Virus record (IMG/VR): IMGVR_UViG_3300045988_055078
Coordinates: 1-45,034 of that record
Direction: 5' to 3' (one strand)
DNA from: a virus
DNA: 45,034 nucleotides
Below are positions 1 to 45,034 of this stretch, piece by piece; the stretch's first letter is position 1; each line of letters opens with the position of its first letter. The notes under the pieces were generated by a model, which worked only from the letters and a program-made list of their open reading frames with translations, did not search any database and was not told the origin of the DNA. Position numbers and translations under genes: made by a program.

Positions 1-107
1 GGACAGGTCGGCCCCGGACAGGCTGGCCCTGGACAGGTCGGCCTCGGACAGTTTGGCCCCGATCAGTTTGGCCCCGAACAGTTTGGCCCCGATCAGTTTG
101 GCCCCGA
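1..107. repeat. Terminal direct overlap identical to 44928..45034 (circular-contig signature)
   Basis: First 107 nt and last 107 nt compared base by base and found identical. Confidence 0.9.
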
Positions 108-225
108 ACAGTTTGGCCCCGGACAGGTCGGCCTCGGACAGGTTGGCCTCGGACAGGTTGGCCCCGGACAGGTTGGCCCCGGACAGGTTGGCCCCGGACA
201 GGTTGGCCTCGGGCAGGTTGGCCTG
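1..225. repeat. 15-bp tandem coding repeats (pentapeptide array, left part)
   Basis: 15 consecutive 15-bp units such as GGACAGGTTGGCCCC and GATCAGTTTGGCCCC, read directly. Confidence 0.95.
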
Positions 226-8214: not shown

Positions 8215-8958
8215 TCACCAGAACAGCATAAGCCGGAATGCCTCTCGACCTTTCGGCGTTACGAACGTCTGTGTACCACTCCATCCGGTGGCGCTGTTGT
8301 AGCTTTCTTTGACGGAGAAATACCCGTCATTCCGGCTTTCCGTGGGCAGCAGGCTACCTTTCTGCGTCCGGTACAGGAATTTCTTTTCCATCAGGAAGTC
8401 CATGAACTGCTTCGGCGGAATGCCGAGGACTTTTGCCGTCTCCCGGAAGTTAAGCAGAAGATTTCGCTCGATGCAGGCGTCAAAGTAGTCCGCCTTCGGC
8501 TCCATGATCCGGTTTTTCACGGTCAGATCGGCAATTTGGGCGTCACGCTCGGCGATTTTCTGCTGCGCAATGAGCAGGGCCTTGGCCATCAGTTCTTCGG
8601 GCGAAAGGGTTTCCTGTCCGACGATGTACCCGCCGGTCTTCCGGATACTGGGCAGCACCTCGGATGTGATCCACTTGCGGAAGTGCCGGGCCTCCGGCTT
8701 GTCCGAACGCAGAATCACGCTATACAAGCCGGATTCGTTGATGATGGTGGTGGACTGCGTTCTGCCGAGGGAATCGGTGAGGTGAGCCTGACTCACCTCA
8801 TCACCATCGAGCCGTTCAGCGACCCGAGCGGGTGTTGTCAGACCCAGCACGTCACACACGTCTTTCAGCACGAACCACGGTTCATTGTCCCGCTGCACGG
8901 TTCGCACCCGGCAGTCCTTGTAATAAAAAATCTGAGTTGCGGTTGCTTCATTTTCCAT
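8215..8958 (-). CDS. Antirepressor, Bro-N domain plus KilAC domain
   Basis: FVLKDVCDVLGL..INESGLYSVILRSDKPEARHFRKWITSEVLPSIRKTG (Bro-N). C-terminal ..FRETAKVLGIPPKQFMDFLMEKKFLY (KilAC-like). Confidence 0.85.
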   Translation of the reverse strand: MENEATATQIFYYKDCRVRTVQRDNEPWFVLKDVCDVLGLTTPARVAERLDGDEVSQAHLTDSLGRTQSTTIINESGLYSVILRSDKPEARHFRKWITSEVLPSIRKTGGYIVGQETLSPEELMAKALLIAQQKIAERDAQIADLTVKNRIMEPKADYFDACIERNLLLNFRETAKVLGIPPKQFMDFLMEKKFLYRTQKGSLLPTESRNDGYFSVKESYNSATGWSGTQTFVTPKGREAFRLMLFW

Positions 8959-29631: not shown

Positions 29632-29707
29632 TGGCGGGCGGAGCAGGATTCGAACCTGCGACGTCGTGATTAACAGTCACGCGCTCTACCGTCTTAGCTA
29701 TCTACCC
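29632..29707 (-). tRNA. tRNA-Asn (anticodon GTT)
   Basis: 76-nt cloverleaf folded by hand: acceptor GGGTAGA/TCCGCCC (one A-C mismatch), D arm GCTA/GAGC, anticodon arm CGTGA-CTGTTAA-TCACG, T arm GCAGG-TTCGAAT-CCTGC, encoded CCA. Confidence 0.85.
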
Positions 29708-29790: not shown

Positions 29791-29866
29791 TGGAGCCGCC
29801 AGACGGAATCGAACCGTCAACCTTCCGATTACAAATCGGATGCACTGCCAATTGTGCTACAACGGC
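29791..29866 (-). tRNA. tRNA-Thr (anticodon TGT)
   Basis: 76-nt cloverleaf: acceptor GCCGTTG/TGGCGGC (three G-U pairs), D arm GCAC/GTGC, anticodon arm TCCGA-TTTGTAA-TCGGA, T arm GACGG-TTCGATT-CCGTC, encoded CCA. Confidence 0.85.
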
Positions 29867-29946: not shown

Positions 29947-30105
29947 TTATCTATTTAAGCATTTTCTTGTAATTGCAATGACCTTGATCTCTCCGTGCTC
30001 CACGCGCAATTCAACAACCTTCCCCTGCCGGATCGTGTTATTGATAAGCTGAATCTGTTCATCCGTCAGATTCAGGCGGCGCGCCGGATTGACTTCCTGT
30101 TCCAC
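29947..30105 (-). CDS. Possible small ORF (52 aa, GTG start) overlapping the portal 3' end
   Basis: GGGGGTG, 5 nt, GTG. Translation (M)EQEVNPARRLNLTDEQIQLINNTIRQGKVVELRVEHGEIKVIAITRKCLNR has protein-like composition. Confidence 0.3.
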   Translation of the reverse strand: MEQEVNPARRLNLTDEQIQLINNTIRQGKVVELRVEHGEIKVIAITRKCLNR

Positions 30106-31498
30106 CGGATACACCCCCGTTTTGATTGGCCCGCTGAGCGGCTTCCCGCTCCTGCTGGGCCATATATTCCATGCTCATGCGATAAGCAAGCTGCGGATCG
30201 GAAAAGAGGCCGCTGTGCGTGAACGCAAGCTCCGGCGCAATTTTCTCACACCCGAGCATCATGGTCAAAACGCTTGCCTTCTGCGCGATGTTCTCATAAT
30301 TTCGGCGGGTAAACCGGATTTCCAGTGCCGACAGCTTCAGGCTCAGGTTCCCCATGTCCTGACAGATTCGCAGCACCAGCTTCAGGAATTCCTTCTCGGA
30401 TTTCTTAAATACCAGTTCTGCGTCTTTGGCTCTCGCTTCGGCGGCAGACCAGCCGTCCCGCATGATGACCGCAGACCCGGTATCAGAAGTGGAGGACCCG
30501 CCGTTTCGATTTGGCATCCCGCAGATGGTCAACACGGTGTTATACATGCTGTCCACGAGCGTCTGCGTCTGCGTTTGGTTCATCTCGGACGTCAGATACT
30601 GGATTTCCGCTTTCAAGGTGGAATCAATATCTTTGAACTTGATGCCGCCCAGGTCCCGCAGCTTTTCGAAATCGTCTTCCGAAATGTCCACGTTGTGAAA
30701 AAGCATCAGCGCCTGAACGAACTGTTCCACGCCGTCAATCCGGTTGCTCTCCACCATATTGATTGCATCCAGCAGAGGAATGACGATTTCAAAAGCGCCA
30801 AGCCTCGCCTGATTGGCGGGGTATTCGATAATCGGAATGCCGAAAATCTGATCTTCTGCGTGGATAACTGACCATGTATTCCACACCTCGTAGTATCGGT
30901 TCTCCGTCCAGCAGGAAAAGACGATGGTCCCATCCTCCCGCAGAACGTAGCGGACGGCCATCATTGGCTTGTGTCCCAGCCCCACAGAGTAAATAACGAA
31001 GGTATAGCGCGGATCAAGCGTGAAGATTTCAAAGGGCGCTTCGTCTGCGTCTACGTCCGCCAGCGCATCCGGCAAAACCATCCGATATGAGGTGCCGCAG
31101 ATGTTTCCCCAATCGACCAGCTCTTTGTCTTTGGTTGGCTTGTCCTCAGAAAGCATATAATCGTTCAGATGCAGGACCTCGGAAGCAATGATGTCATCGC
31201 TGCCACGGCTGACATATTGGATCGGTTCGCCGATCTGGTAGCCGGTCTTAAACGAGACAATCTCGTTGGCCCGGTTCTCCACGACTTGGTTATTGATCTC
31301 CGGTCGGACCTGCTTCTCCCGATAAAGGATCGGCTGATCCCCTCGGTAGTACCAATACAGATAATCGATATCTGCCTGATTCATCAAATGGACAGTCTGT
31401 GCCTTTTGCAGCACGTCAATCACGTTGGCATCCGTGATTTTCGGCACTTCCGTATAAATAACCCGGCGTCCGAACAATTTACGGCTCTGCAACGGCAT
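30059..31498 (-). CDS. Portal protein (SPP1 gp6-like)
   Basis: DYLYWYYRGDQPILYREKQVRPEINNQVVENRANEIVSFKTGY.. Start at 31498 follows GGAGGTGAA. Confidence 0.9.
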   Translation of the reverse strand: MPLQSRKLFGRRVIYTEVPKITDANVIDVLQKAQTVHLMNQADIDYLYWYYRGDQPILYREKQVRPEINNQVVENRANEIVSFKTGYQIGEPIQYVSRGSDDIIASEVLHLNDYMLSEDKPTKDKELVDWGNICGTSYRMVLPDALADVDADEAPFEIFTLDPRYTFVIYSVGLGHKPMMAVRYVLREDGTIVFSCWTENRYYEVWNTWSVIHAEDQIFGIPIIEYPANQARLGAFEIVIPLLDAINMVESNRIDGVEQFVQALMLFHNVDISEDDFEKLRDLGGIKFKDIDSTLKAEIQYLTSEMNQTQTQTLVDSMYNTVLTICGMPNRNGGSSTSDTGSAVIMRDGWSAAEARAKDAELVFKKSEKEFLKLVLRICQDMGNLSLKLSALEIRFTRRNYENIAQKASVLTMMLGCEKIAPELAFTHSGLFSDPQLAYRMSMEYMAQQEREAAQRANQNGGVSGGTGSQSGAPPESDG

Positions 31499-31725
31499 TT
31501 CACCTCCATTTATGGATTCTATCTTCACATTTATCATTTTACCACGCAAGCAACGCTTTGTATAGATAACAATAGTTAATTAAATCCATGCCATTAAACC
31601 ATAACAAAGATTATATTTACATTTCAGCCGTAAAATGATATAATTCAGGCGTGGTTGTTGAGTGTTTCATAAATACCTCCTATTCCGATTTTCTACCTTC
31701 CTATTACCCCTTTTCTTTGATGGGT

Positions 31726-33542: not shown

Positions 33543-33791
33543 TCACTGTTCTTCGGAATCTCCGAACATCTGCTTCTGAATCTGTTCAAGCAATGCCTGC
33601 GCCTGATTCAGCTGTTCACGGCTAATAGCGTTTTCTGCCATGAACTCCGGCTTCCCGGAATCTCTGTCACGGTCATCCAAAATAAGCTTCGTGATGTAAT
33701 CCTTGTACGTCAAATCCAGGTTCGCAATTCGTCTGCGAACGAACTTATACAGCGTTTCGTCCACACGGATAGAAATCGTCTTATCTGCCAC
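33543..33791 (-). CDS. Ribbon-helix-helix-like protein (82 aa, GTG start)
   Basis: AAAGGAGG, 7 nt, GTG. (M)ADKTISIRVDETLYKFVRRRIANLDLTYKDYITKLIL. Upstream minus-strand promoter TTTACA, 17 nt, TAGAAT. Confidence 0.6.
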   Translation of the reverse strand: MADKTISIRVDETLYKFVRRRIANLDLTYKDYITKLILDDRDRDSGKPEFMAENAISREQLNQAQALLEQIQKQMFGDSEEQ

Positions 33792-33876
33792 TTTTGTGCC
33801 TCCTTTCTGCAAATATTCTATCAAAAAATCCCGATTTTGTAAAGTTAATTTATATTCACGAAAACCCCCTTTTTGG

Positions 33877-33940: not shown

Positions 33941-34126
33941 TTATTCGGATTTCCGCTTTTCTTTTTCCAAAAGAAGATGAACTCCACGTCTGACAGCTTC
34001 TCCTTTTGTGATTTCATTCCGAAAACAGTATTCTTGAAGTTTTGCTTCTGTTTCGGAATCAAGCCTAACGCTGAAGCTGAAAGATTTGGGGTTATCCACT
34101 TTCGGTCTCCCAGTACGAGGGGCCAC
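33941..34126 (-). CDS. Ribbon-helix-helix (Arc/CopG-like) protein, 61 aa
   Basis: GAGGTGA, 4 nt, GTG. MAPRTGRPKVDNPKSFSFSVRLDSETEAKLQEYCFRNEITKGEAVRRGVHLLLEKE. Confidence 0.75.
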   Translation of the reverse strand: MAPRTGRPKVDNPKSFSFSVRLDSETEAKLQEYCFRNEITKGEAVRRGVHLLLEKEKRKSE

Positions 34127-34192: not shown

Positions 34193-35854
34193 TTAGAACG
34201 GCCTTGCAAAAACCGAAATCCGGTTCCCGTCCAGCGACCGCACCATGTTCATTGCCATGGTCAGACTGTCCGGTGCATCGTCATGAGCCGTTTTCTTGAA
34301 CATCGTGTATGAAAACACATTCTGCATAAACAAGGAGTAGGCCTTGCTGCGCTTTCCACTCTCCAAAAACACCATGTTCTCCCGAATATCCGGTGCTTTA
34401 TCGAAGATTCTTTGGAACTTTGCCTTATCCGTTGGAGCTGCTTTTGTGGTGATATTCAGCCGATATCCCTTTGCCTTCAGCTGTTCCTCCACGCCCTCTT
34501 TGTAGTCCATCGTTGCTTTGGTGGCTTCAAATTGTGCAGCCTGCACATTGTGCTTCATAATAGCCGACACCAGCAGCGGCTGTGTGACGCGCTTATCTCC
34601 GTCATCATACACGACGTCGTGAACGTAAATATCGTTGCCATACTGATAGCATACCGGAGCCGCCACAAAGTCACCGCCTCCAAACGCCGGATCAACGGCC
34701 ATGAAGATTCGGTCCGGCTCTCCATCCGGCAGGGTTCCGTTATAGTACCGGAAATCCGCAGGGCTGAACAAAGCGCCGTCTCTTTCGATCGGCTGCCCCA
34801 TATACTGGGCGGTCCAGGAGGCCATATCGTTATTCCGTTCAAATGACGCACGCCGCTGCCGATAATATTCCGTACTGAATCCGACACCGTATTCATAGCA
34901 GAACTGACTTTCGTCATTTTCATCCAACGCCGGTAGATTCATGATCTCGAAACGCCGGTTACGGAACTTTTCATCGTTTTGCAGCAGTTCCATTCGGATA
35001 CCCGCCGGGTCCACCATGGACCATCTGGTGCCGCACCACAGAATTTTCGCCTTTTCTTTTGCACGAGGTAACAGATTGTTGTCCACTTTAGACCATGCCG
35101 ACATCAGCCGGTCCTTGTTCAATGCTTCCTCAATGCCGCCGATCAGGTCGTCCGAAATTTCAAAACCGTTGCAGTCACAGGCTCCGTTCAGCGTCCCGTA
35201 TAAGGAACGGCATGTAAGCGACGGATACCTTTTCCTCCGGTCAATGTTCAGCGTTTCGTCTTTTGCGTTGGTTTCCACCAACTTTGCGTTTGGAAAAACA
35301 TCCCGCCACAGATAGGTTGTCGGGTCTTGCAGAATCTCCAGGACGCCACGATAGAACGCTGCTGTAATCACGTCAGAATAGGCCGAATACAGGTTCGACG
35401 CCTCGCTATTGCGCCCGATCAGCCACGTTGTAAAGAACATGAGAATTGACGTTTTACCGACCCGCGGCGGCATCGAAATAAACAATTCATCCAGCTTATC
35501 ATCCGCCAGCCTTTGTAAATTCTGTACCACTTTCCCCATAATCCGTTTTCTCGGCAGATAAAACCGTTCTGATGCCTTCCGGTCAATTTCCAAATACGTC
35601 AGATAGCAGTCAAAATCATCCGGCGCTTCAAACAGCAAGCTTTTCCGCCACAGTTCATAGAAACTGCTCTCCTGCCCGTTCTCCGCCTGCGCCAGAATCT
35701 TACCTCGCAGCAAGTTGTTTGTCTTGTGAGCCGCTGCATGGTCCTCTGACGCCCAATCCCGGCACAAAGAAAACAAGTCCTGATAGGCATCATAATCCGC
35801 AGGCAGACGCGCTATCGCTTTCAGAATCGATTCGGAAATCCTTTCGTAATCCAT
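34193..35854 (-). CDS. terL: Terminase large subunit
   Basis: Walker A ELFISMPPRVGKTSILMFF. C-terminal nuclease-like region. Start at 35854 follows AGGAGG. Confidence 0.9.
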   Translation of the reverse strand: MDYERISESILKAIARLPADYDAYQDLFSLCRDWASEDHAAAHKTNNLLRGKILAQAENGQESSFYELWRKSLLFEAPDDFDCYLTYLEIDRKASERFYLPRKRIMGKVVQNLQRLADDKLDELFISMPPRVGKTSILMFFTTWLIGRNSEASNLYSAYSDVITAAFYRGVLEILQDPTTYLWRDVFPNAKLVETNAKDETLNIDRRKRYPSLTCRSLYGTLNGACDCNGFEISDDLIGGIEEALNKDRLMSAWSKVDNNLLPRAKEKAKILWCGTRWSMVDPAGIRMELLQNDEKFRNRRFEIMNLPALDENDESQFCYEYGVGFSTEYYRQRRASFERNNDMASWTAQYMGQPIERDGALFSPADFRYYNGTLPDGEPDRIFMAVDPAFGGGDFVAAPVCYQYGNDIYVHDVVYDDGDKRVTQPLLVSAIMKHNVQAAQFEATKATMDYKEGVEEQLKAKGYRLNITTKAAPTDKAKFQRIFDKAPDIRENMVFLESGKRSKAYSLFMQNVFSYTMFKKTAHDDAPDSLTMAMNMVRSLDGNRISVFARPF

Positions 35855-36508
35855 CCGTACTCCTCCTTTACAAAATAAAATGGGCCGCTCATGCGTAACG
35901 CAAAAGCGACCCTTTGGCCTTTCTCCCACCTGCCGTGGAAGATTGCTATCTCGTTTTTATTCTATCATGTTATTGCTTCGATATCAACACGCGCCCGCAG
36001 GGCGCTTTTATAAAATTTATTTTGCCCTTTTTGTTTTTTCGCGATTTTTTCGGGGACCGCTTTTTGTTGGCGCGAGTGGTAGGAGGGTGTGCCGCGCGCC
36101 TGGGCCCGGCCCTATATCCCCCGCCCCCGGGTGGCCAGATTGGCGCGGAGGCCGGAGCCGCAGCCCCGTGCGGTATCTTCGGGGCGCTCCGCTGGCTGCA
36201 AAGTGCCGCCGGGCAATGTGTCCGCGCATGACGCACACATACAAGGACAGACAGCAAACGCGATTCCGCGAACGCAACAAAATCAAATTTTGGTTGCGTT
36301 AGAATGGGCAAATATATCTTTGTAAATGGCATTTTATGCGTAAATGTTCGGAGAACTCCGTGTATGCGGGTGTTTTCGCGTCCGTCTATTGTGGACCGGT
36401 ACTCTGTCCGCGCATCGTGGAAAATGTGGCTATTATGTGCGCTGCAAAAACACATAGAAAACCGAACCGCAGCCCGGAAAATAAATCAAAAAAATCTTTG
36501 AAAACCTC

Positions 36509-36537
36509 TTGACGAATGGGACAGCCCATGCTATAAT
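36509..36537 (+). promoter_or_regulatory. Near-consensus promoter of the reversed cassette
   Basis: TTGACG, 17 nt, TATAAT. Confidence 0.65.
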
Positions 36538-36571
36538 AAAGCCATCCCAGAGGAAAGGAGGCCAAAGGGGA

Positions 36572-36718
36572 ATGACAATGCAGGAATTAAGCCGCTTGAT
36601 CTTGGGGCTTCAAGCTGCCGGGTGGAACGGTGACGAGATCAACAAGCTGCTTCTGTGGATCGAAAGCGGCGACGAGCATTACAAGCCCACGAAGGACGAA
36701 CCGAAACCGAAAGCATAA
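36572..36718 (+). CDS. Hypothetical small protein (48 aa)
   Basis: AGGAGG..AAGGGGA upstream of the ATG. MTMQELSRLILGLQAAGWNGDEINKLLLWIESGDEHYKPTKDEPKPKA. Confidence 0.55.
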   Translation: MTMQELSRLILGLQAAGWNGDEINKLLLWIESGDEHYKPTKDEPKPKA

Positions 36719-36761
36719 ACGGCGGGCCGGGAAACCGGCCCAGCCCGAAAGGGGGCAGAGA

Positions 36762-36929
36762 ATGCCAGACAGCAAAGCCAAAAGCGCATGGGAGCGGGAA
36801 AACGTGTTAAAAATCACGCTCAAGATTAACCGCAACCAAACGCCGGAGCTTTTCGCCCTACTGGAAAAGGCCGAAAGCAAATCCGGAGCCGCGCGCGAAC
36901 TCATGCAAAAAGCAATTAAAAGGGAATAA
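36762..36929 (+). CDS. Small RHH-like protein (55 aa)
   Basis: AAAGGGGG upstream of the ATG. ..NVLKITLKINRNQTPELFALLEKAESKSGAARELMQKAIK fits a strand-helix-helix pattern. Confidence 0.55.
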   Translation: MPDSKAKSAWERENVLKITLKINRNQTPELFALLEKAESKSGAARELMQKAIKRE

Positions 36930-37066
36930 AAAGCCCGGCCAGCGCTGGAACCGCCGACCGGGCAACCCCGAAAACGTTTGAAAAACCAACCTTCGCAGGA
37001 ATCCGGGGAAAACAATTATACCCGGGATTCCTCCGAAAGTCAAGAAATTTATGGAGGAATTGAAAA

Positions 37067-37654
37067 ATGGCTAATCTTTACAATCTCGACGGAATCGTTA
37101 CCGAGCTGAAGAAGCGCAACGCGCAGGACCGCGCAATCCTGGCCGCATGGGAGTCGGTAACCTATCCCACCAAGAAGGACGGAAAGCCCTTCGCACGGAT
37201 GGCGCAGAACATCAGCGGCGCGAAGTACGCCGCCGAGGCCTACACCCTGCAGCCGGGTGAAATGGCAGTAACCGTCACCACCTGGGGCGCTGATTATGGC
37301 GTCGGCTACGTTTCCGACGATCTCCACGCATACACCACCGCCGACCGCATGACGGACGCCCAGCAGGGCAAACCCGGCAATCTGCTGCCGAAGGTGCCCG
37401 GCCTAAAACAGATTTATCTTTTTGACCTGGACGACATCAAATCCGCCATCGCGGCACGGTGTGACCAGCTGCGGCAGCGGATCGCCACCCGGGAAAACCA
37501 AATCAAGCAGGCGCACGCGGCCTATAGCACATTCTATGCGGCTTACGGGGCTGCCCTGGATCAGCTCGCAGCCATGACAAGCAAGGACTTCGGCGGCGCG
37601 ACGCTCTACCATGCTATTCTGGATACCGTCACCGCGCGGTATCCGCACTGTTGA
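37067..37654 (+). CDS. Hypothetical protein (195 aa)
   Basis: GGAGGAA, 7 nt, ATG. No motif recognised. Confidence 0.65.
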   Translation: MANLYNLDGIVTELKKRNAQDRAILAAWESVTYPTKKDGKPFARMAQNISGAKYAAEAYTLQPGEMAVTVTTWGADYGVGYVSDDLHAYTTADRMTDAQQGKPGNLLPKVPGLKQIYLFDLDDIKSAIAARCDQLRQRIATRENQIKQAHAAYSTFYAAYGAALDQLAAMTSKDFGGATLYHAILDTVTARYPHC

Positions 37655-37673
37655 AAGGGGGGAAACGGTCCCA

Positions 37674-37742
37674 ATGTGGTTTTTTATTGGCGTTATCGCC
37701 TTTTTCGTTGGCATTTTTCAAGCGTTGCTTCGCAAAAAGTAA
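37674..37742 (+). CDS. Possible hydrophobic micro-protein (22 aa)
   Basis: MWFFIGVIAFFVGIFQALLRKK: one TM helix plus a basic tail. The RBS-like AAGGGGGG is 11 nt upstream. Confidence 0.3.
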   Translation: MWFFIGVIAFFVGIFQALLRKK

Positions 37743-37766
37743 TCAGATTTTAAGGAGGTTTTGACA

Positions 37767-38024
37767 ATGGCAAAATATCGCATCAACTACCACACCGGCG
37801 CGGGGGATTTCGAATTTTCCGGAACCCTCGCCCAGGCACAAGCCGCAGCCGATGACGACGCAGCGTACACGCAAGCGCCTATCACCATTCACGACGCCGA
37901 AACCGGCGAAGAGGTTTCCCGCCGCAACTGGTACGGATCCGCTTACGACCCCGACACCACCCCGGAAGATGACCCGATTTGCTTCGGTGATTATGGATAC
38001 TATAGCGATTGGATCATCTGGTAA
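37767..38024 (+). CDS. Highly acidic small protein (85 aa)
   Basis: AGGAGG, 8 nt, ATG. 16 Asp/Glu against 4 Lys/Arg by hand count. Confidence 0.65.
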   Translation: MAKYRINYHTGAGDFEFSGTLAQAQAAADDDAAYTQAPITIHDAETGEEVSRRNWYGSAYDPDTTPEDDPICFGDYGYYSDWIIW

Positions 38025-38028
38025 ACGC

Positions 38029-38067
38029 AACCCCCGGATGCCTGACGGCTTCCGGGGGTTCTTCTTT
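38029..38067 (+). terminator. Rho-independent terminator closing the reversed cassette
   Basis: AACCCCCGGA, 12 nt, TCCGGGGGTT, followed by CTTCTTT. Confidence 0.7.
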
Positions 38068-38464
38068 GCCCTGCCCATTGTGGCGGGGCTTTTCTTTGTT
38101 TCCGTGTGGCGGCTCTGGTGGCCTTGTGCGGCGTTTTGTTTTCTGGTATGTAATTTCATGGGCGCGCGGTTTTCTTCGTTCTTGCGGCCACTGGTGACGC
38201 GCGGCGGTATGTCTGCACCGTTTCCATTGGTGCGTTGCGTCCGTGGTGGGTCCGTATCCTTGTTTTCTTGCGCGCCTTGTCAAGTTATGCCCCGGAGATT
38301 TTCGCCGCTTCTGGGGCCGCTGAGGGGCCGACGCGCTCCGGGTCCATTCTGGCCAGCCCACCCCACCACGCCAGACCGGCAGCCGGGGCCGTTGTGGTGG
38401 GTGGGGGTGGCACGCCCGCGCAGATTTTACGTTGCCGGGCGGTGAGCAGCTGGCCCTGTCTGAC

Positions 38465-38815
38465 AAAGTCGATGGCCCTGTTGGAATCTTCGAAAATGAA
38501 AGTCGATAAAGGAATCCCCGGAAAGTCGCTGGACCTTCCGGGGATTTGCTGTCTAATAAAGTCGCTCAGAGTTTCCGACCGCAAACTGGGCAGAAATTGA
38601 AAGTCGCGGTTACTTGCTTGCCGCTCGATGGCAGAATAGAAAAAGTTTCCGGTACCGGCACGGCGTCTCTGCAAAAGTCGCAGTCAATCCGATAGTCGCC
38701 CCGATCCATCTCGTTCATGATTTCTTCAACATCACCGAACGGGACCGGCGGGCGGCGCAGTTTGGATACTTCGTCGCAAAGTCTCTCCACAGCGGCACAA
38801 AGTCGGTCTTTGCTT
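38465..38815 (+). repeat. Cluster of seven same-orientation AAAGTCG boxes
   Basis: Perfect heptamers start at 38465, 38499, 38522, 38558, 38600, 38674 and 38809. Degenerate copies at 38692 and 38778. Confidence 0.8.
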
Positions 38816-38865
38816 TCGTCATTGGGCGCGGCGCAACGTCCTTCTGAATACAATCCTTCGTGCAT
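38566..38865 (-). CDS. Hypothetical zinc-ribbon protein (99 aa)
   Basis: CDFC..CPVCG at the C-terminus. Start overlaps the terS stop. Confidence 0.6.
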   Translation of the reverse strand: MHEGLYSEGRCAAPNDESKDRLCAAVERLCDEVSKLRRPPVPFGDVEEIMNEMDRGDYRIDCDFCRDAVPVPETFSILPSSGKQVTATFNFCPVCGRKL

Positions 38866-39413
38866 TATTCGCTCGTCCCTTCTGCGTCAACGATAGTCGC
38901 TCCGCCTGCTTTCATGTCTTCCAGATACTTCCGCCGCAGCGCTTCCGGGTCTTTCTGCTCACCTAAGGGGTTATCCGGCTTCAAGACCACCTCTTGCTGG
39001 TCTGTGTAGTTCATGTTGTTTTTCATCAAAAAAATTCCGGCGACGGGGTTAATCTTGCCATTTTGCATGAAATCTTCCATCTGAGCGTTGATAAAATCCC
39101 GTGCTTTTTTGATGGTGCAACGCACAGAGTCGCTTAAATCCCTGCTCCTCGGCTGATTATTGCACCATCTCCACAGGGTCATCCTGTCCACCCCGAACGC
39201 CAGTGCAAGCCCGGCGAACGTCGGTTTCATATCGTTTTTCCCGCACAGGCTGAAATAGTCGATGCACCGTTGCTGCACTGCTTCCAGGCTATCCATGTTT
39301 GGCTTTTGCCATTTCATGATTTCCAAGGAATGGTTGATGTACTTGGTGTTGTCTCCCGGCTCCAGGTCAGGCACCTGATAGGGCTTCTTTTTAAGCTTTT
39401 TCCCTTCTGTCAA
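38865..39413 (-). CDS. terS: Terminase small subunit
   Basis: N-terminal HTH KPTFAGLALAFGVDRMTLWRWCN. 182 aa. TTG start 7 nt after AGGAGG. Confidence 0.75.
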   Translation of the reverse strand: MTEGKKLKKKPYQVPDLEPGDNTKYINHSLEIMKWQKPNMDSLEAVQQRCIDYFSLCGKNDMKPTFAGLALAFGVDRMTLWRWCNNQPRSRDLSDSVRCTIKKARDFINAQMEDFMQNGKINPVAGIFLMKNNMNYTDQQEVVLKPDNPLGEQKDPEALRRKYLEDMKAGGATIVDAEGTSE

Positions 39414-39526: not shown

Positions 39527-40261
39527 TTATTCAGACCCGCCCGGTGGTTTGGCTTCTGCTTTGGCGAATAAGCTATCCATATTCCGGAAGACGCGCCTGA
39601 GCCTCCAGACCGTTGAGAAATACATGGGTGTATACCAATAGGCTTTCGGGTCATCTCCATGGCGCATTGGGTCTGTCAGGCTGTCCCCGATCTTGACGTA
39701 CCCGGCACACCCGAGAAGTGACAGCTGGATGTAGCACATCATGCCGGTGGTAAAGTCTAAGTCCTGCGCCGTTACCAGAACATGATTCTGCCAATTCAGT
39801 GGGCTTTTGGCTTCATAAAGCTGCGTCTCGATCTGGTTGACAGCTGCAATTAAAGTCGCACCCGCTCCGCAAGCACAGTCATTCAGCGTGACGAAACCGT
39901 CACGGTTGATCTGCTCCACGACGTTGCCGGTTGTCAGTTCTGCCATGCAGCGGCAAACGTCGTATGGCGTGAAAAACTGTCATTTCCAATGATCCCCGAG
40001 GCCGAGTTCCATGTATACACTGCCGAGGAAGTCCTGGTTCCGGTCCGCCTCAAAGGCATTGACAACGTCCGCCGCCAGTTCTGGGAATACCATGCGTTCT
40101 TCCTTGTCGTACCTCTTGACGATTTCCAGATACGTTTTCTCTCGGTCTGCCTTCCAACGATGGTCCACCGCGTTGGAAATTGCTGTCGCGTACATGTTGA
40201 TAAAGTCGATCCATACCTGCCACAGCGGGAACCTTTTGGACAGACTGCGAAACCGATTCAC
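39527..40261 (-). pseudogene. N6-adenine DNA methyltransferase-like gene interrupted by an in-frame TGA and lacking motif IV
   Basis: ..FLGSVYMELGLGDHWK-TGA-QFFTPYDVCRCMAELT..LNDCACGAGATL (motifs X and I). The stop at 39980-39982 is in frame with both ORFs. No (D/N)PP(Y/F) motif downstream. Confidence 0.65.
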
Positions 40262-44461: not shown

Positions 44462-45034
44462 TGTACTCTACTGCCTCCTGTCGGTTGATGAAAAAGTGGA
44501 TTCCTGCGGCGCATTCCAGGAAACGGTTATCGCAGAAATCCGGGACGGAAACGGTCTCTCCGACCCTGTATAAAAACTCCTCGTCTCTGTTGCTTGTTAC
44601 GACATCAACATCAGCCTTAGTCCCATCCGGATTCTGGATTTCCAATACGATAGCCTTATCGCACCGGCACTTCCTGCCAGAGGACGAGCTGCGTTTTGCA
44701 TCTTCTGGGATCAACAGCTTTACGATATATCCACGGGCTTTTTTCCAGCCGGTAAAAGAGCCGTTATCCGGGCAAGCCATCGGGACATACGGGATGTTTT
44801 TTGCCCTGGACAGGTCGGCCCTGGACAGGCTGGCCCTGGACAGGTCGGCCCTGGACAGGTTGGCCCCGATCAGTTTGGCCCCGGACAGGCTGGCCCTGGA
44901 CAGGTCGGCCTCGGACAGGTTGGCCCTGGACAGGTCGGCCCCGGACAGGCTGGCCCTGGACAGGTCGGCCTCGGACAGTTTGGCCCCGATCAGTTTGGCC
45001 CCGAACAGTTTGGCCCCGATCAGTTTGGCCCCGA
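44454..45034 (-). CDS. Pentapeptide-repeat protein, C-terminal part (repeats plus ~108-aa non-repeat domain)
   Basis: The frame of ORF 44454..44780 stays open upstream through the repeat array to the window end. The C-terminal domain ends ..[19 protein letters not shown]. Confidence 0.85.
44808..45034. repeat. 15-bp tandem coding repeats (pentapeptide array, right part)
   Basis: 15 units read directly. The last 107 bp duplicate positions 1..107. Confidence 0.95.

Follow-up and report, generated by a model that had tools for sequence, protein, structure and literature searches.

The viral record IMGVR_UViG_3300045988_055078 of IMG/VR was analysed over its whole length of 45,034 nucleotides (nt), here called the window, and the subject of this study is the region between its small and large terminase genes, terS and terL. 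Both genes lie on the minus strand and between them sits a plus-strand gene cassette. We conclude, with a probability of roughly 0.55 for its anatomy and regulation, that the cassette fills an autonomously transcribed, antisense-gated accessory slot of the moron type, which a whole group of temperate gut siphophages carries in reverse orientation between terS and terL. The cassette is a moron of an ordinary kind in an unusually well-defined, leader-marked hypervariable slot. Two properties of morons were found: a promoter and terminator of its own, here as sequence predictions (the promoter P1, two terminators and a layout kept in relatives), and a content that varies among syntenic relatives (gap types, an insertion or deletion of one gene, orfE, and seven cargo families). 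The phage is temperate by gene content, as it encodes a large serine recombinase, helix-turn-helix (HTH) repressors and a Bro-N/ANT protein (8215-8958). The borders of the slot and the parts of the cassette, with open reading frames (ORFs) given by their length in amino acids (aa), are as follows.

34193-35854, minus strand: terL, left border of the slot (PHROG 38, 3.9e-54; PF22530, 1.1e-5)
36509-36537, plus strand: cassette promoter P1, TTGACG-17-TATAAT, scoring 11/12 and with a TG extension
36572-36718, plus strand: orfA, 48 aa
36762-36929, plus strand: orfB, 55 aa, basic, isoelectric point (pI) 9.8, ribbon-helix-helix (RHH)-like in sequence pattern alone
37067-37654, plus strand: orfC, 195 aa, the core cargo
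37674-37742, plus strand: orfD, a possible 22-aa hydrophobic peptide, MWFFIGVIAFFVGIFQALLRKK
37767-38024, plus strand: orfE, 85 aa, acidic, optional cargo
38029-38060, plus strand: first intrinsic terminator hairpin, 14 nt, 93% complementary
38068-38089, plus strand: second intrinsic terminator, in tandem with the first, predicted from sequence
38566-38865, minus strand: 99-aa zinc-ribbon ORF, co-oriented with terS (PF13240, 0.0017, below the curated cut-off)
38865-39413, minus strand: terS, right border of the slot (PF16677 GP3_package, 5.3e-11; PHROG 606, 1.3e-11)

The original prediction, made from the letters of the sequence, had described a plus-strand promoter-to-terminator unit between the minus-strand terminase genes, and this description was borne out. 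The promoter it named at 36509 is present, the strong terminator it placed at 38029 is the first of the tandem pair, its five ORFs are all there, each preceded by a Shine-Dalgarno (SD) sequence, and the 85-aa product of orfE does have 16 acidic (D+E) and 4 basic (K+R) residues, with a pI of 4.05. It had also stated that terS and terL are 2.7 kb apart; the two genes are real and separated, but the distance is 3010 nt and includes the 99-aa ORF, which had been overlooked together with the GC-rich flanks of the cassette and an antisense promoter, P2, inside it. In the window, orfA and orfB lie between P1 and a leader switch that precedes orfC, orfD and orfE lie 3' of orfC, and about 0.5 kb of GC-rich, ORF-free DNA is found on either side of the cassette. 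Substitutions relative to related sequences were counted at codon positions 1/2/3 and came to 0/0/4 in orfA, 7/3/11 in orfB, 20/12/36 in orfC and 7/7/23 in orfE; as a pattern of substitution, this excess at the third position is evidence that the four ORFs are coding. For orfD, which is 95% identical in the related loci L027 and L028, the substitutions are too few to show coding. An 11-12/12 plus-strand promoter 5' of the orfC homologue and terminators 3' of it recur in L001, L006, L008, L009 and L010, and because the same layout recurs in these loci, it is more than chance. Both tandem terminators are kept in L009 and analogous ones are found in L001, L006, L008 and L010.

We fetched 63 IMG/VR loci in which terS is mostly 77-87% identical to that of the window. 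The expectation that terS and terL would normally be adjacent fails in this phage group, as the genes are adjacent in 0 of the 57 relatives in which both were found, with gaps of 3.5-6.5 kb, and the gap of the window (3.0 kb) is the smallest of those compared. At least 19 content types were distinguished among the 37 gaps analysed and the window. Judged from sequence comparison, the terS-terL gap is a hypervariable accessory slot common to dozens of related phages, and even read conservatively, terS-terL in this group is a hypervariable island of 3-6.5 kb and not a junction. A leader in reverse orientation to terS is present in 53 of the 63 relatives. Fifty-two of these leaders are of the type seen 5' of orfC in L001 (79-98% identity) and that of L101, the L010 contig, is of the L010 type; of 52 leader-bearing relatives, 50 have a P1 and 44 a P2. 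The first gene 3' of the leader in the 53 loci encodes one of seven unrelated proteins.

211-aa protein: 21 loci
131-aa protein (MAIYDKITAELEARKDR...): 19 loci, L056 and 18 others
130-aa protein: 4 loci
66-aa protein: 4 loci
114-aa protein: 2 loci
Acidic 127-aa protein: 2 loci
orfC: 1 locus

A conserved leader followed by seven unrelated first genes indicates that the expression platform is conserved and that the cargo is exchangeable. The architecture and its conservation are thus seen directly across these loci, and so is the diversity of a cargo without a known homologue. The six cargo families other than orfC have no Pfam match, the 211-aa protein has no PADLOC match, and neither the 211-aa nor the 131-aa protein has a significant PDB sequence match. 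Homologues of the 131-aa protein with 44-56% identity are encoded by cultured Parabacteroides and Eggerthella phages (GenBank OP172819, OP172820 and OP172808), so this accessory gene crosses phylum-level host boundaries. When the other gap occupants were searched against Pfam and PADLOC, only short serine recombinases, a weak tRNA_anti-like oligonucleotide/oligosaccharide-binding (OB) fold and zinc ribbons were recognized. The view of the cassette as a self-contained, swappable unit is supported by the orfE indel, by the restriction of orfA and orfB to the closest relatives, by the 19 or more gap types and by the varied contexts of orfC described below.

The conserved leader contains the second promoter, P2, which is convergent with P1, and a set of elements from which we predict a cis-antisense small RNA (sRNA) and a translational switch.

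37043-37015, minus strand: antisense promoter P2, TTGACT-17-TATAAT, a consensus match convergent with P1
37008-36925, minus strand: predicted cis-antisense sRNA of about 84 nt, a stem-loop followed by an intrinsic terminator, from sequence and fold
36963-36933, minus strand: sRNA terminator stem, 12 pairs of which 10 are G-C, followed by the U-tract TTTTTATT
36989-37040, plus strand: leader hairpin, a 20-nt inverted repeat, 85% complementary, with the P2 -10 element in its loop
36997-37002, plus strand: decoy, an SD-like AGGAAT in the hairpin 5' arm that pairs with the anti-SD arm
37027-37034, plus strand: anti-SD ATTCCTCC in the hairpin 3' arm, 8 nt, match p ~0.01
37053-37057, plus strand: true SD of orfC, GGAGG, from sequence

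The position of P2 is kept in L009, L027, L028, L006, L010, L008, L001 and L031, though the intervening spacer differs, and P2 with a minus-strand terminator downstream is conserved in nine loci with six different hairpin stem sequences. The predicted sRNA folds at -39.5 kcal/mol (z -3.98); its equivalent in L006 has a z of -6.4 with different stem sequences, and across the leaders of the relatives its predicted size is 60-125 nt. The arms of the leader hairpin differ completely between loci yet remain complementary, in six stem versions. In most versions the 5' arm duplicates the SD region, with 9-nt duplicates in L008, L001 and L031 (p ~0.004 each). Leaders were folded one by one with the sRNA-complementary part either blocked or unblocked, and the closer leaders were also aligned. 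With the 5' arm blocked, pairing between the anti-SD and the true SD is seen in the window, L009, L028, L006, L008, L001 and L031; in the unblocked folds the decoy:anti-SD hairpin forms and the true SD is free, with L008 and L010 as exceptions. Covariation was counted in 41 distinct L001-type leaders against 500 shuffles. The anti-SD:SD helix is 97.6% paired, with one pair changed from U-A to C-G in three sequences, a result reached by 1 of the 500 shuffles, and the sRNA terminator helix is 97.9% paired, with a C-G pair changed to G-C in four sequences, a result reached by none of them. Searches of Rfam at the gathering threshold returned only two tRNAs in the window and nothing in nine related loci, and at an E-value threshold the cassette gave terminator look-alikes alone.

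From these elements we infer the following mode of action. P1 is a near-consensus sigma-A promoter and would be read by the host RNA polymerase without phage factors. In the leader of the P1 transcript, the decoy 5' arm, which is SD-like, would mask the anti-SD 3' arm and leave the true SD free. The convergent P2 would yield a short, terminated antisense RNA, which starts about 59 nt 5' of the orfC ATG and runs away from the SD, so that the ribosome binding site (RBS) is not overlapped; this sRNA is predicted to be complementary to the decoy arm and the sequence 5' of the decoy, not to the anti-SD arm. Pairing of sRNA and mRNA would then free the anti-SD, which would sequester the true SD, and convergent transcription may contribute interference. 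The net effect would be a burst of cargo when the DNA enters a cell free of the sRNA, followed by a damped steady state, for example in the lysogen.

Several observations weigh against this model and against the role we propose for the cargo. The evidence for P1, P2, the sRNA and the switch consists of consensus matches and predicted folds. The anti-SD:SD pairing of L008 forms in the unconstrained fold too, and in L010, where P2 and a hairpin are retained, the arms do not fit the logic of decoy and anti-SD. The decoy:anti-SD hairpin shows no covariation beyond shuffles in the L001-type leaders. Distant orfC homologues are without P2, from which it follows that antisense control goes with the slot rather than with the orfC protein. 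Searches with PADLOC gave no match for the cassette and slot proteins, and because no cargo protein has a known homologue, an arms-race role for the cargo is drawn from context.

orfC is the only cassette product that is conserved widely. Its family is represented by 65 clusters at the 90% identity level and by 480 at the 50% level (E<=1e-3), the members are all stand-alone proteins of about 180-200 aa with the motifs W..V..TKKDGKPF and YDLDDIK, and the source names of the cluster members are all 'hypothetical'. The family is thus widespread in metagenomes, and assigning it a function would annotate many genes. The AlphaFold model of orfC, with a predicted local distance difference test score (pLDDT) of 93.2, consists of an N-terminal helix, a β domain, a 50-residue helix and a last helix. 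The model has no Foldseek match at E<=0.001 in PDB or BFVD and the sequence has no match in the PDB profile search. A scan of 90 family members produced only coiled-coil noise, to which we also assign Prefoldin_2, matched by 21 of the 90 with a best value of 5e-5. No match to orfC was obtained among GenBank phages or PLSDB plasmids, and GTDB representative genomes, scanned by pattern, gave only one short relative and an uninformative 1.9-kb contig.

The other cassette products were no more informative in these searches: orfA, orfB and orfE, like orfC, have no family match in Pfam, PHROGs, NCBIfam or PADLOC, and no cassette protein matched any PDB or BFVD entry significantly. orfA and orfB are restricted to the closest relatives. 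orfA is 100% identical in L009, L027 and L028, its four substitutions all falling at third positions, and orfB has 11 homologue clusters, all close. orfE has only five homologue clusters; L027 and L028 carry it, and from L009 it is cleanly missing through an indel that removes 37747-38009. Its model (pLDDT 77) is β-rich and aromatic-rich and has no PDB match at E<=0.001 in Foldseek, hence none to any solved DNA mimic; the highest-probability Foldseek match was T4 Dmd, but with an E of 0.89. orfD, with a single hydrophobic helix and a basic tail, resembles small membrane peptides or type I toxins.

The contexts in which orfC is found elsewhere are varied. It lies in reverse orientation to the terminase genes near terS or terL in L001, L006, L008, L009, L010, L011, L014, L017, L019 and L026, while in L024 and L025 it is part of same-strand clusters of small genes just 5' of terS, without room for a promoter of its own. 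L004 and L005 carry it in arrays with ArdC-N/MPTase, RadC, GmrSD_N and DUF8033, and its recurrent neighbours are GP88 and DUF8033. The orfC of L008 is 83% identical to that of the window and the terL only 40%. Among the closer relatives the orfC protein is 82-88% identical, compared with 100% for orfA and 96% for the 99-aa ORF (81% in L009), and the nucleotide identity of orfC falls to 68% at 37500-37600. Taken together, these contexts and the fast divergence are what would be expected of a mobile accessory protein that evolves fast and is active during infection, and they argue against a packaging role.

From the fixed position of the slot, its hypervariable content and the contexts of the orfC homologues, we infer that the cargo consists of arms-race effectors that act on arrival, and context makes counter-defence or anti-immunity somewhat more likely as its role than prophage-expressed defence. 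The following features lie between the cassette and its borders.

35987-35959, minus strand: promoter-like site TTGATA-17-TAGAAT with a TG extension, about 100 nt 5' of terL
35991-36005: palindromic terminator-like hairpin GCGCCCGCAGGGCGC at the left cassette boundary
36230-36500: conserved non-coding block of about 270 nt 5' of P1, from the alignment of the window and L009 with the otherwise different L006 and L008
38090-38460: GC-rich spacer, 57-65% GC, with no credible ORF
38466-38805, plus strand: array of AAGTCG direct repeats, 7 copies and TAGTCG variants, 340 nt, all in one orientation
38546-38513, minus strand: hairpin just past the 99-aa ORF, from the inverted-repeat search

The 340-nt array, which runs across the 99-aa ORF and the 3' side of terS, holds seven of the 25 AAGTCG matches in the window (both strands); variants are found at 38693 and 38894, and similar clusters lie 3' of terS in L001, L006 and L009. 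By its repeat structure and position the array may be a candidate pac or TerS-binding site, and one possibility is that the place of the slot next to it lets the cargo be part of the DNA that enters or is expressed first. In the GC-rich spacer the indels relative to L009 are not multiples of three, and L053 and L055 have only junk-like ORFs at this position. On the other side of the cassette, the non-coding block includes a hairpin, AACGCAACAAAA...TTTTGGTTGCGTT; it contains no conserved ORF and has no Rfam match, and its fold z-scores are only -1.1 and -1.7.

The original prediction also held that late transcription must cross the cassette antisense to reach terL, and the sequence gives this no support: a minus-strand hairpin (38546-38513) follows the 99-aa ORF, the strong minus-strand terminator at 36963-36933 lies inside the cassette, and a conserved sigma-A-like promoter lies just 5' of terL. 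The left-boundary hairpin is found at the same place in L006, L008, L009 and L010, with the forms GCGCCCGAAGGGCGC and, in L006, GCGCCCGAAGGGTGC, and in these four loci it is paired with the terL-proximal promoter, of which L001 has an equivalent. terL may be read from the promoter at 35987-35959.

The gaps of some relatives contain short serine recombinases (Resolvase and Recombinase domains, about 250-380 aa) that are co-oriented with terL and adjoin the reverse cassette.

L001, 4190-4951: serine recombinase
L010, 3422-4198: serine recombinase
L055, 10542-11681: serine recombinase
L083, 3682-4515: serine recombinase
L092, 9189-9965: serine recombinase
L006, 2292-2657: 121-aa Resolvase fragment only

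These enzymes might drive turnover or inversion of the cassette; inverted repeats at its flanks were not found, and the terS-terL gap of the window contains no such enzyme. We considered the cassette as a mobile or invertible element by aligning, in six loci, the left flank to the reverse-complemented right flank, and found no convincing pass of the shuffle test (window 15/200, L006 2/200, the other four loci worse). A 51-nt inverted repeat in L010 (4213-4263 and 4695-4745, 73% complementary) joins divergent promoters and not the cassette ends. These promoters flank the non-coding block, an arrangement that suggests a shared regulator or origin.

Other observations concern the borders and the window at large. 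The terL of the window and that of L009 are 96% identical. Two small RHH-type genes lie directly 3' of terL on the minus strand (33941-34126 and 33543-33824), one matching PHROG 876, a transcriptional repressor, at 8e-15 and the other giving a weak CopG/NikA match; regulators between terL and the portal gene are unusual. Genes for tRNA Asn-GTT and Thr-TGT (29632-29707 and 29791-29866, minus strand) lie just 3' of the portal gene (30059-31549). Just 5' of terS, an N6-adenine methylase gene is split into two minus-strand parts, 39527-39946 and 39980-40261, of 139 and 93 aa, and L009 has an intact gene of 221 aa; the split copy most likely marks a pseudogene or results from a sequencing error. 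At each end of the window (1-223 and 44803-45033) a 15-nt unit, GGACAGGTTGGCCCC, is repeated in tandem about 15 times, and a related IMG/VR contig terminates in this repeat too. The window most likely represents a complete circular phage genome of about 45 kb that was opened within the repeat during assembly.

The cassette can be compared with several known systems, each of which suggests a different reading of its function. In the text available to us, Tab of Pseudomonas phage JBD26 is described as a moron that lies between terS and terL on the reverse strand and is transcribed from a promoter of its own, and anti-Tab as a self-immunity gene that overlaps terS by one base and is co-oriented with the late operon (PMC10884400). 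By analogy, P1 would express orfC or another cassette protein as a prophage-encoded defence against superinfection, and the 99-aa ORF, made together with the late genes, would neutralise the effector while the phage runs through its own lytic cycle. We regard this as rather unlikely, even though the likeness to JBD26 as described there is close: an opposite-strand unit with its own promoter lies between terS and terL of a temperate phage, a late-oriented gene, here the 99-aa ORF, overlaps terS by exactly one base (TAATG, at the terS stop), and the region varies among close relatives. A fixed hot spot with variable cargo is, moreover, typical of prophage defence islands. The resemblance ends at the proteins, since the best E in BLASTP comparisons of Tab and anti-Tab with the full set of cassette proteins was 0.68, and at the organization, Tab being in that account a single 83-aa gene where we find a five-ORF operon with a predicted antisense RNA and leader switch, of which the same text notes none for Tab. 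The 99-aa ORF is, moreover, not strictly linked to orfC. Homologues of this ORF occupy the equivalent position in L009, L027, L028, L001 and about 35 terS relatives, many of them lacking orfC, while it is missing from L006 and L010 although both have orfC, so the two do not look like an obligate pair. The same-strand clusters of L024 and L025, in which orfC has no promoter of its own, would be odd for a defence expressed in the lysogen, a repressing antisense RNA is ill-suited to constitutive expression, and PADLOC returned no match.

The original prediction had favoured an anti-CRISPR (acr)/aca-type or anti-restriction operon, in which orfB would be an RHH autorepressor analogous to Aca and the acidic orfE a DNA mimic. 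We consider this improbable. The promoter is strong and of the host type, the cargo is variable, an orphan N6-methylase lies just 5' of terS, and orfB is small and basic and shows by eye a pattern of β-strand, helix, loop with glycine and helix. That pattern, on which the RHH assignment was founded, did not hold up: orfB has no RHH or HTH match in Pfam or in the PDB profile search, and hhalign against Arc and the RHH protein of the window gave a probability of 0.3. Nor is orfB the conserved element of the locus, a place taken by the RNA and promoter leader, as it occurs in the closest relatives only. For orfE, the pI of 4.05 is left as the argument for a DNA mimic; the protein is missing from L009, has just five homologue clusters and is modelled as β-rich and aromatic-rich with no significant PDB match. 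A likeness of orfC or orfE to a known anti-CRISPR did not emerge from the searches of general libraries, which gave neither a Pfam or PDB sequence match nor a Foldseek match.

The immI region of P22 contains the 'ant moron' (Pant-arc-sar-ant), which is under the control of Arc, Mnt and the antisense RNA sar and is highly variable among P22-like phages (PMC2629481). Both loci are variable morons inside the late region, independently expressed in P22 and predicted to be so here, and both have the order of a strong constitutive promoter, a small protein (the RHH protein Arc in P22, the basic orfB here), a small antisense RNA from a convergent intercistronic promoter (predicted here from P2 and its terminator) and an effector. 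On this model orfC would be an antirepressor that acts against the repressors of resident or related prophages, with orfB and the antisense RNA in the restraining roles of Arc and sar. This, too, seems to us quite doubtful. orfC is not an Ant homologue and shows no similarity to ANT, KilAC or Bro-N in Pfam, the window already carries a Bro-N/ANT protein elsewhere, and orfB can be called RHH-like from its sequence pattern only. The unit described here differs further in being reverse to the late genes, in a leader that serves many unrelated cargo genes, six proteins besides orfC sharing it, and in an sRNA that is predicted to end short of the RBS and to act through the anti-SD switch, whereas sar pairs directly with the RBS. 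orfC also occurs in arrays that resemble conjugative elements.

The usual type I toxin-antitoxin design, in which a cis-antisense sRNA represses translation through a structural leader switch, matches the leader and would make orfC or the short, hydrophobic, basic-tailed orfD a toxin or abortive-infection protein with the sRNA as antitoxin, but we think this very unlikely, as orfC is a soluble protein of 195 aa whose homologues occur without any sRNA, orfD lies 3' of orfC, outside the switch, and is absent from most relatives, and one leader serves seven unrelated proteins. For the switch itself, the closest precedents include the type I toxin-antitoxin pair bsrG/SR4 and the plasmid copy-control RNAs of pT181 and IncB, in which a cis-antisense RNA binds the leader away from the RBS and refolding blocks translation. 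Binding away from the RBS is also predicted here. Those systems control replication proteins or small toxins, whereas the leader described here would control a phage slot with exchangeable cargo. If the model holds, the release of an anti-SD from a decoy SD by an antisense RNA would add a regulatory design, and in the papers that we read we found no description of it for phage morons, nor of the slot itself.

The antisense-gated accessory slot also invites comparison with acr-aca loci, with which it shares a fixed position, a strong promoter and a variable small cargo beside a conserved element that damps expression. It differs in that the conserved regulator would be an RNA and promoter leader and not a protein, and in that the cargo proteins match neither known families nor solved structures, and so no solved Acr. 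We suggest, tentatively, that the leader may be an RNA-based counterpart of Aca, a portable burst-then-damp platform that marks a hypervariable counter-defence locus of gut phages and whose cargo, the orfC family with its 480 clusters included, would be new anti-defence or host-takeover effectors. The aca genes served to find anti-CRISPRs by association. The leader offers the same kind of guilt-by-association handle on its cargo and, should the predictions hold, its sequence could be used to collect arms-race proteins of uncultured gut phages, as was done with aca.

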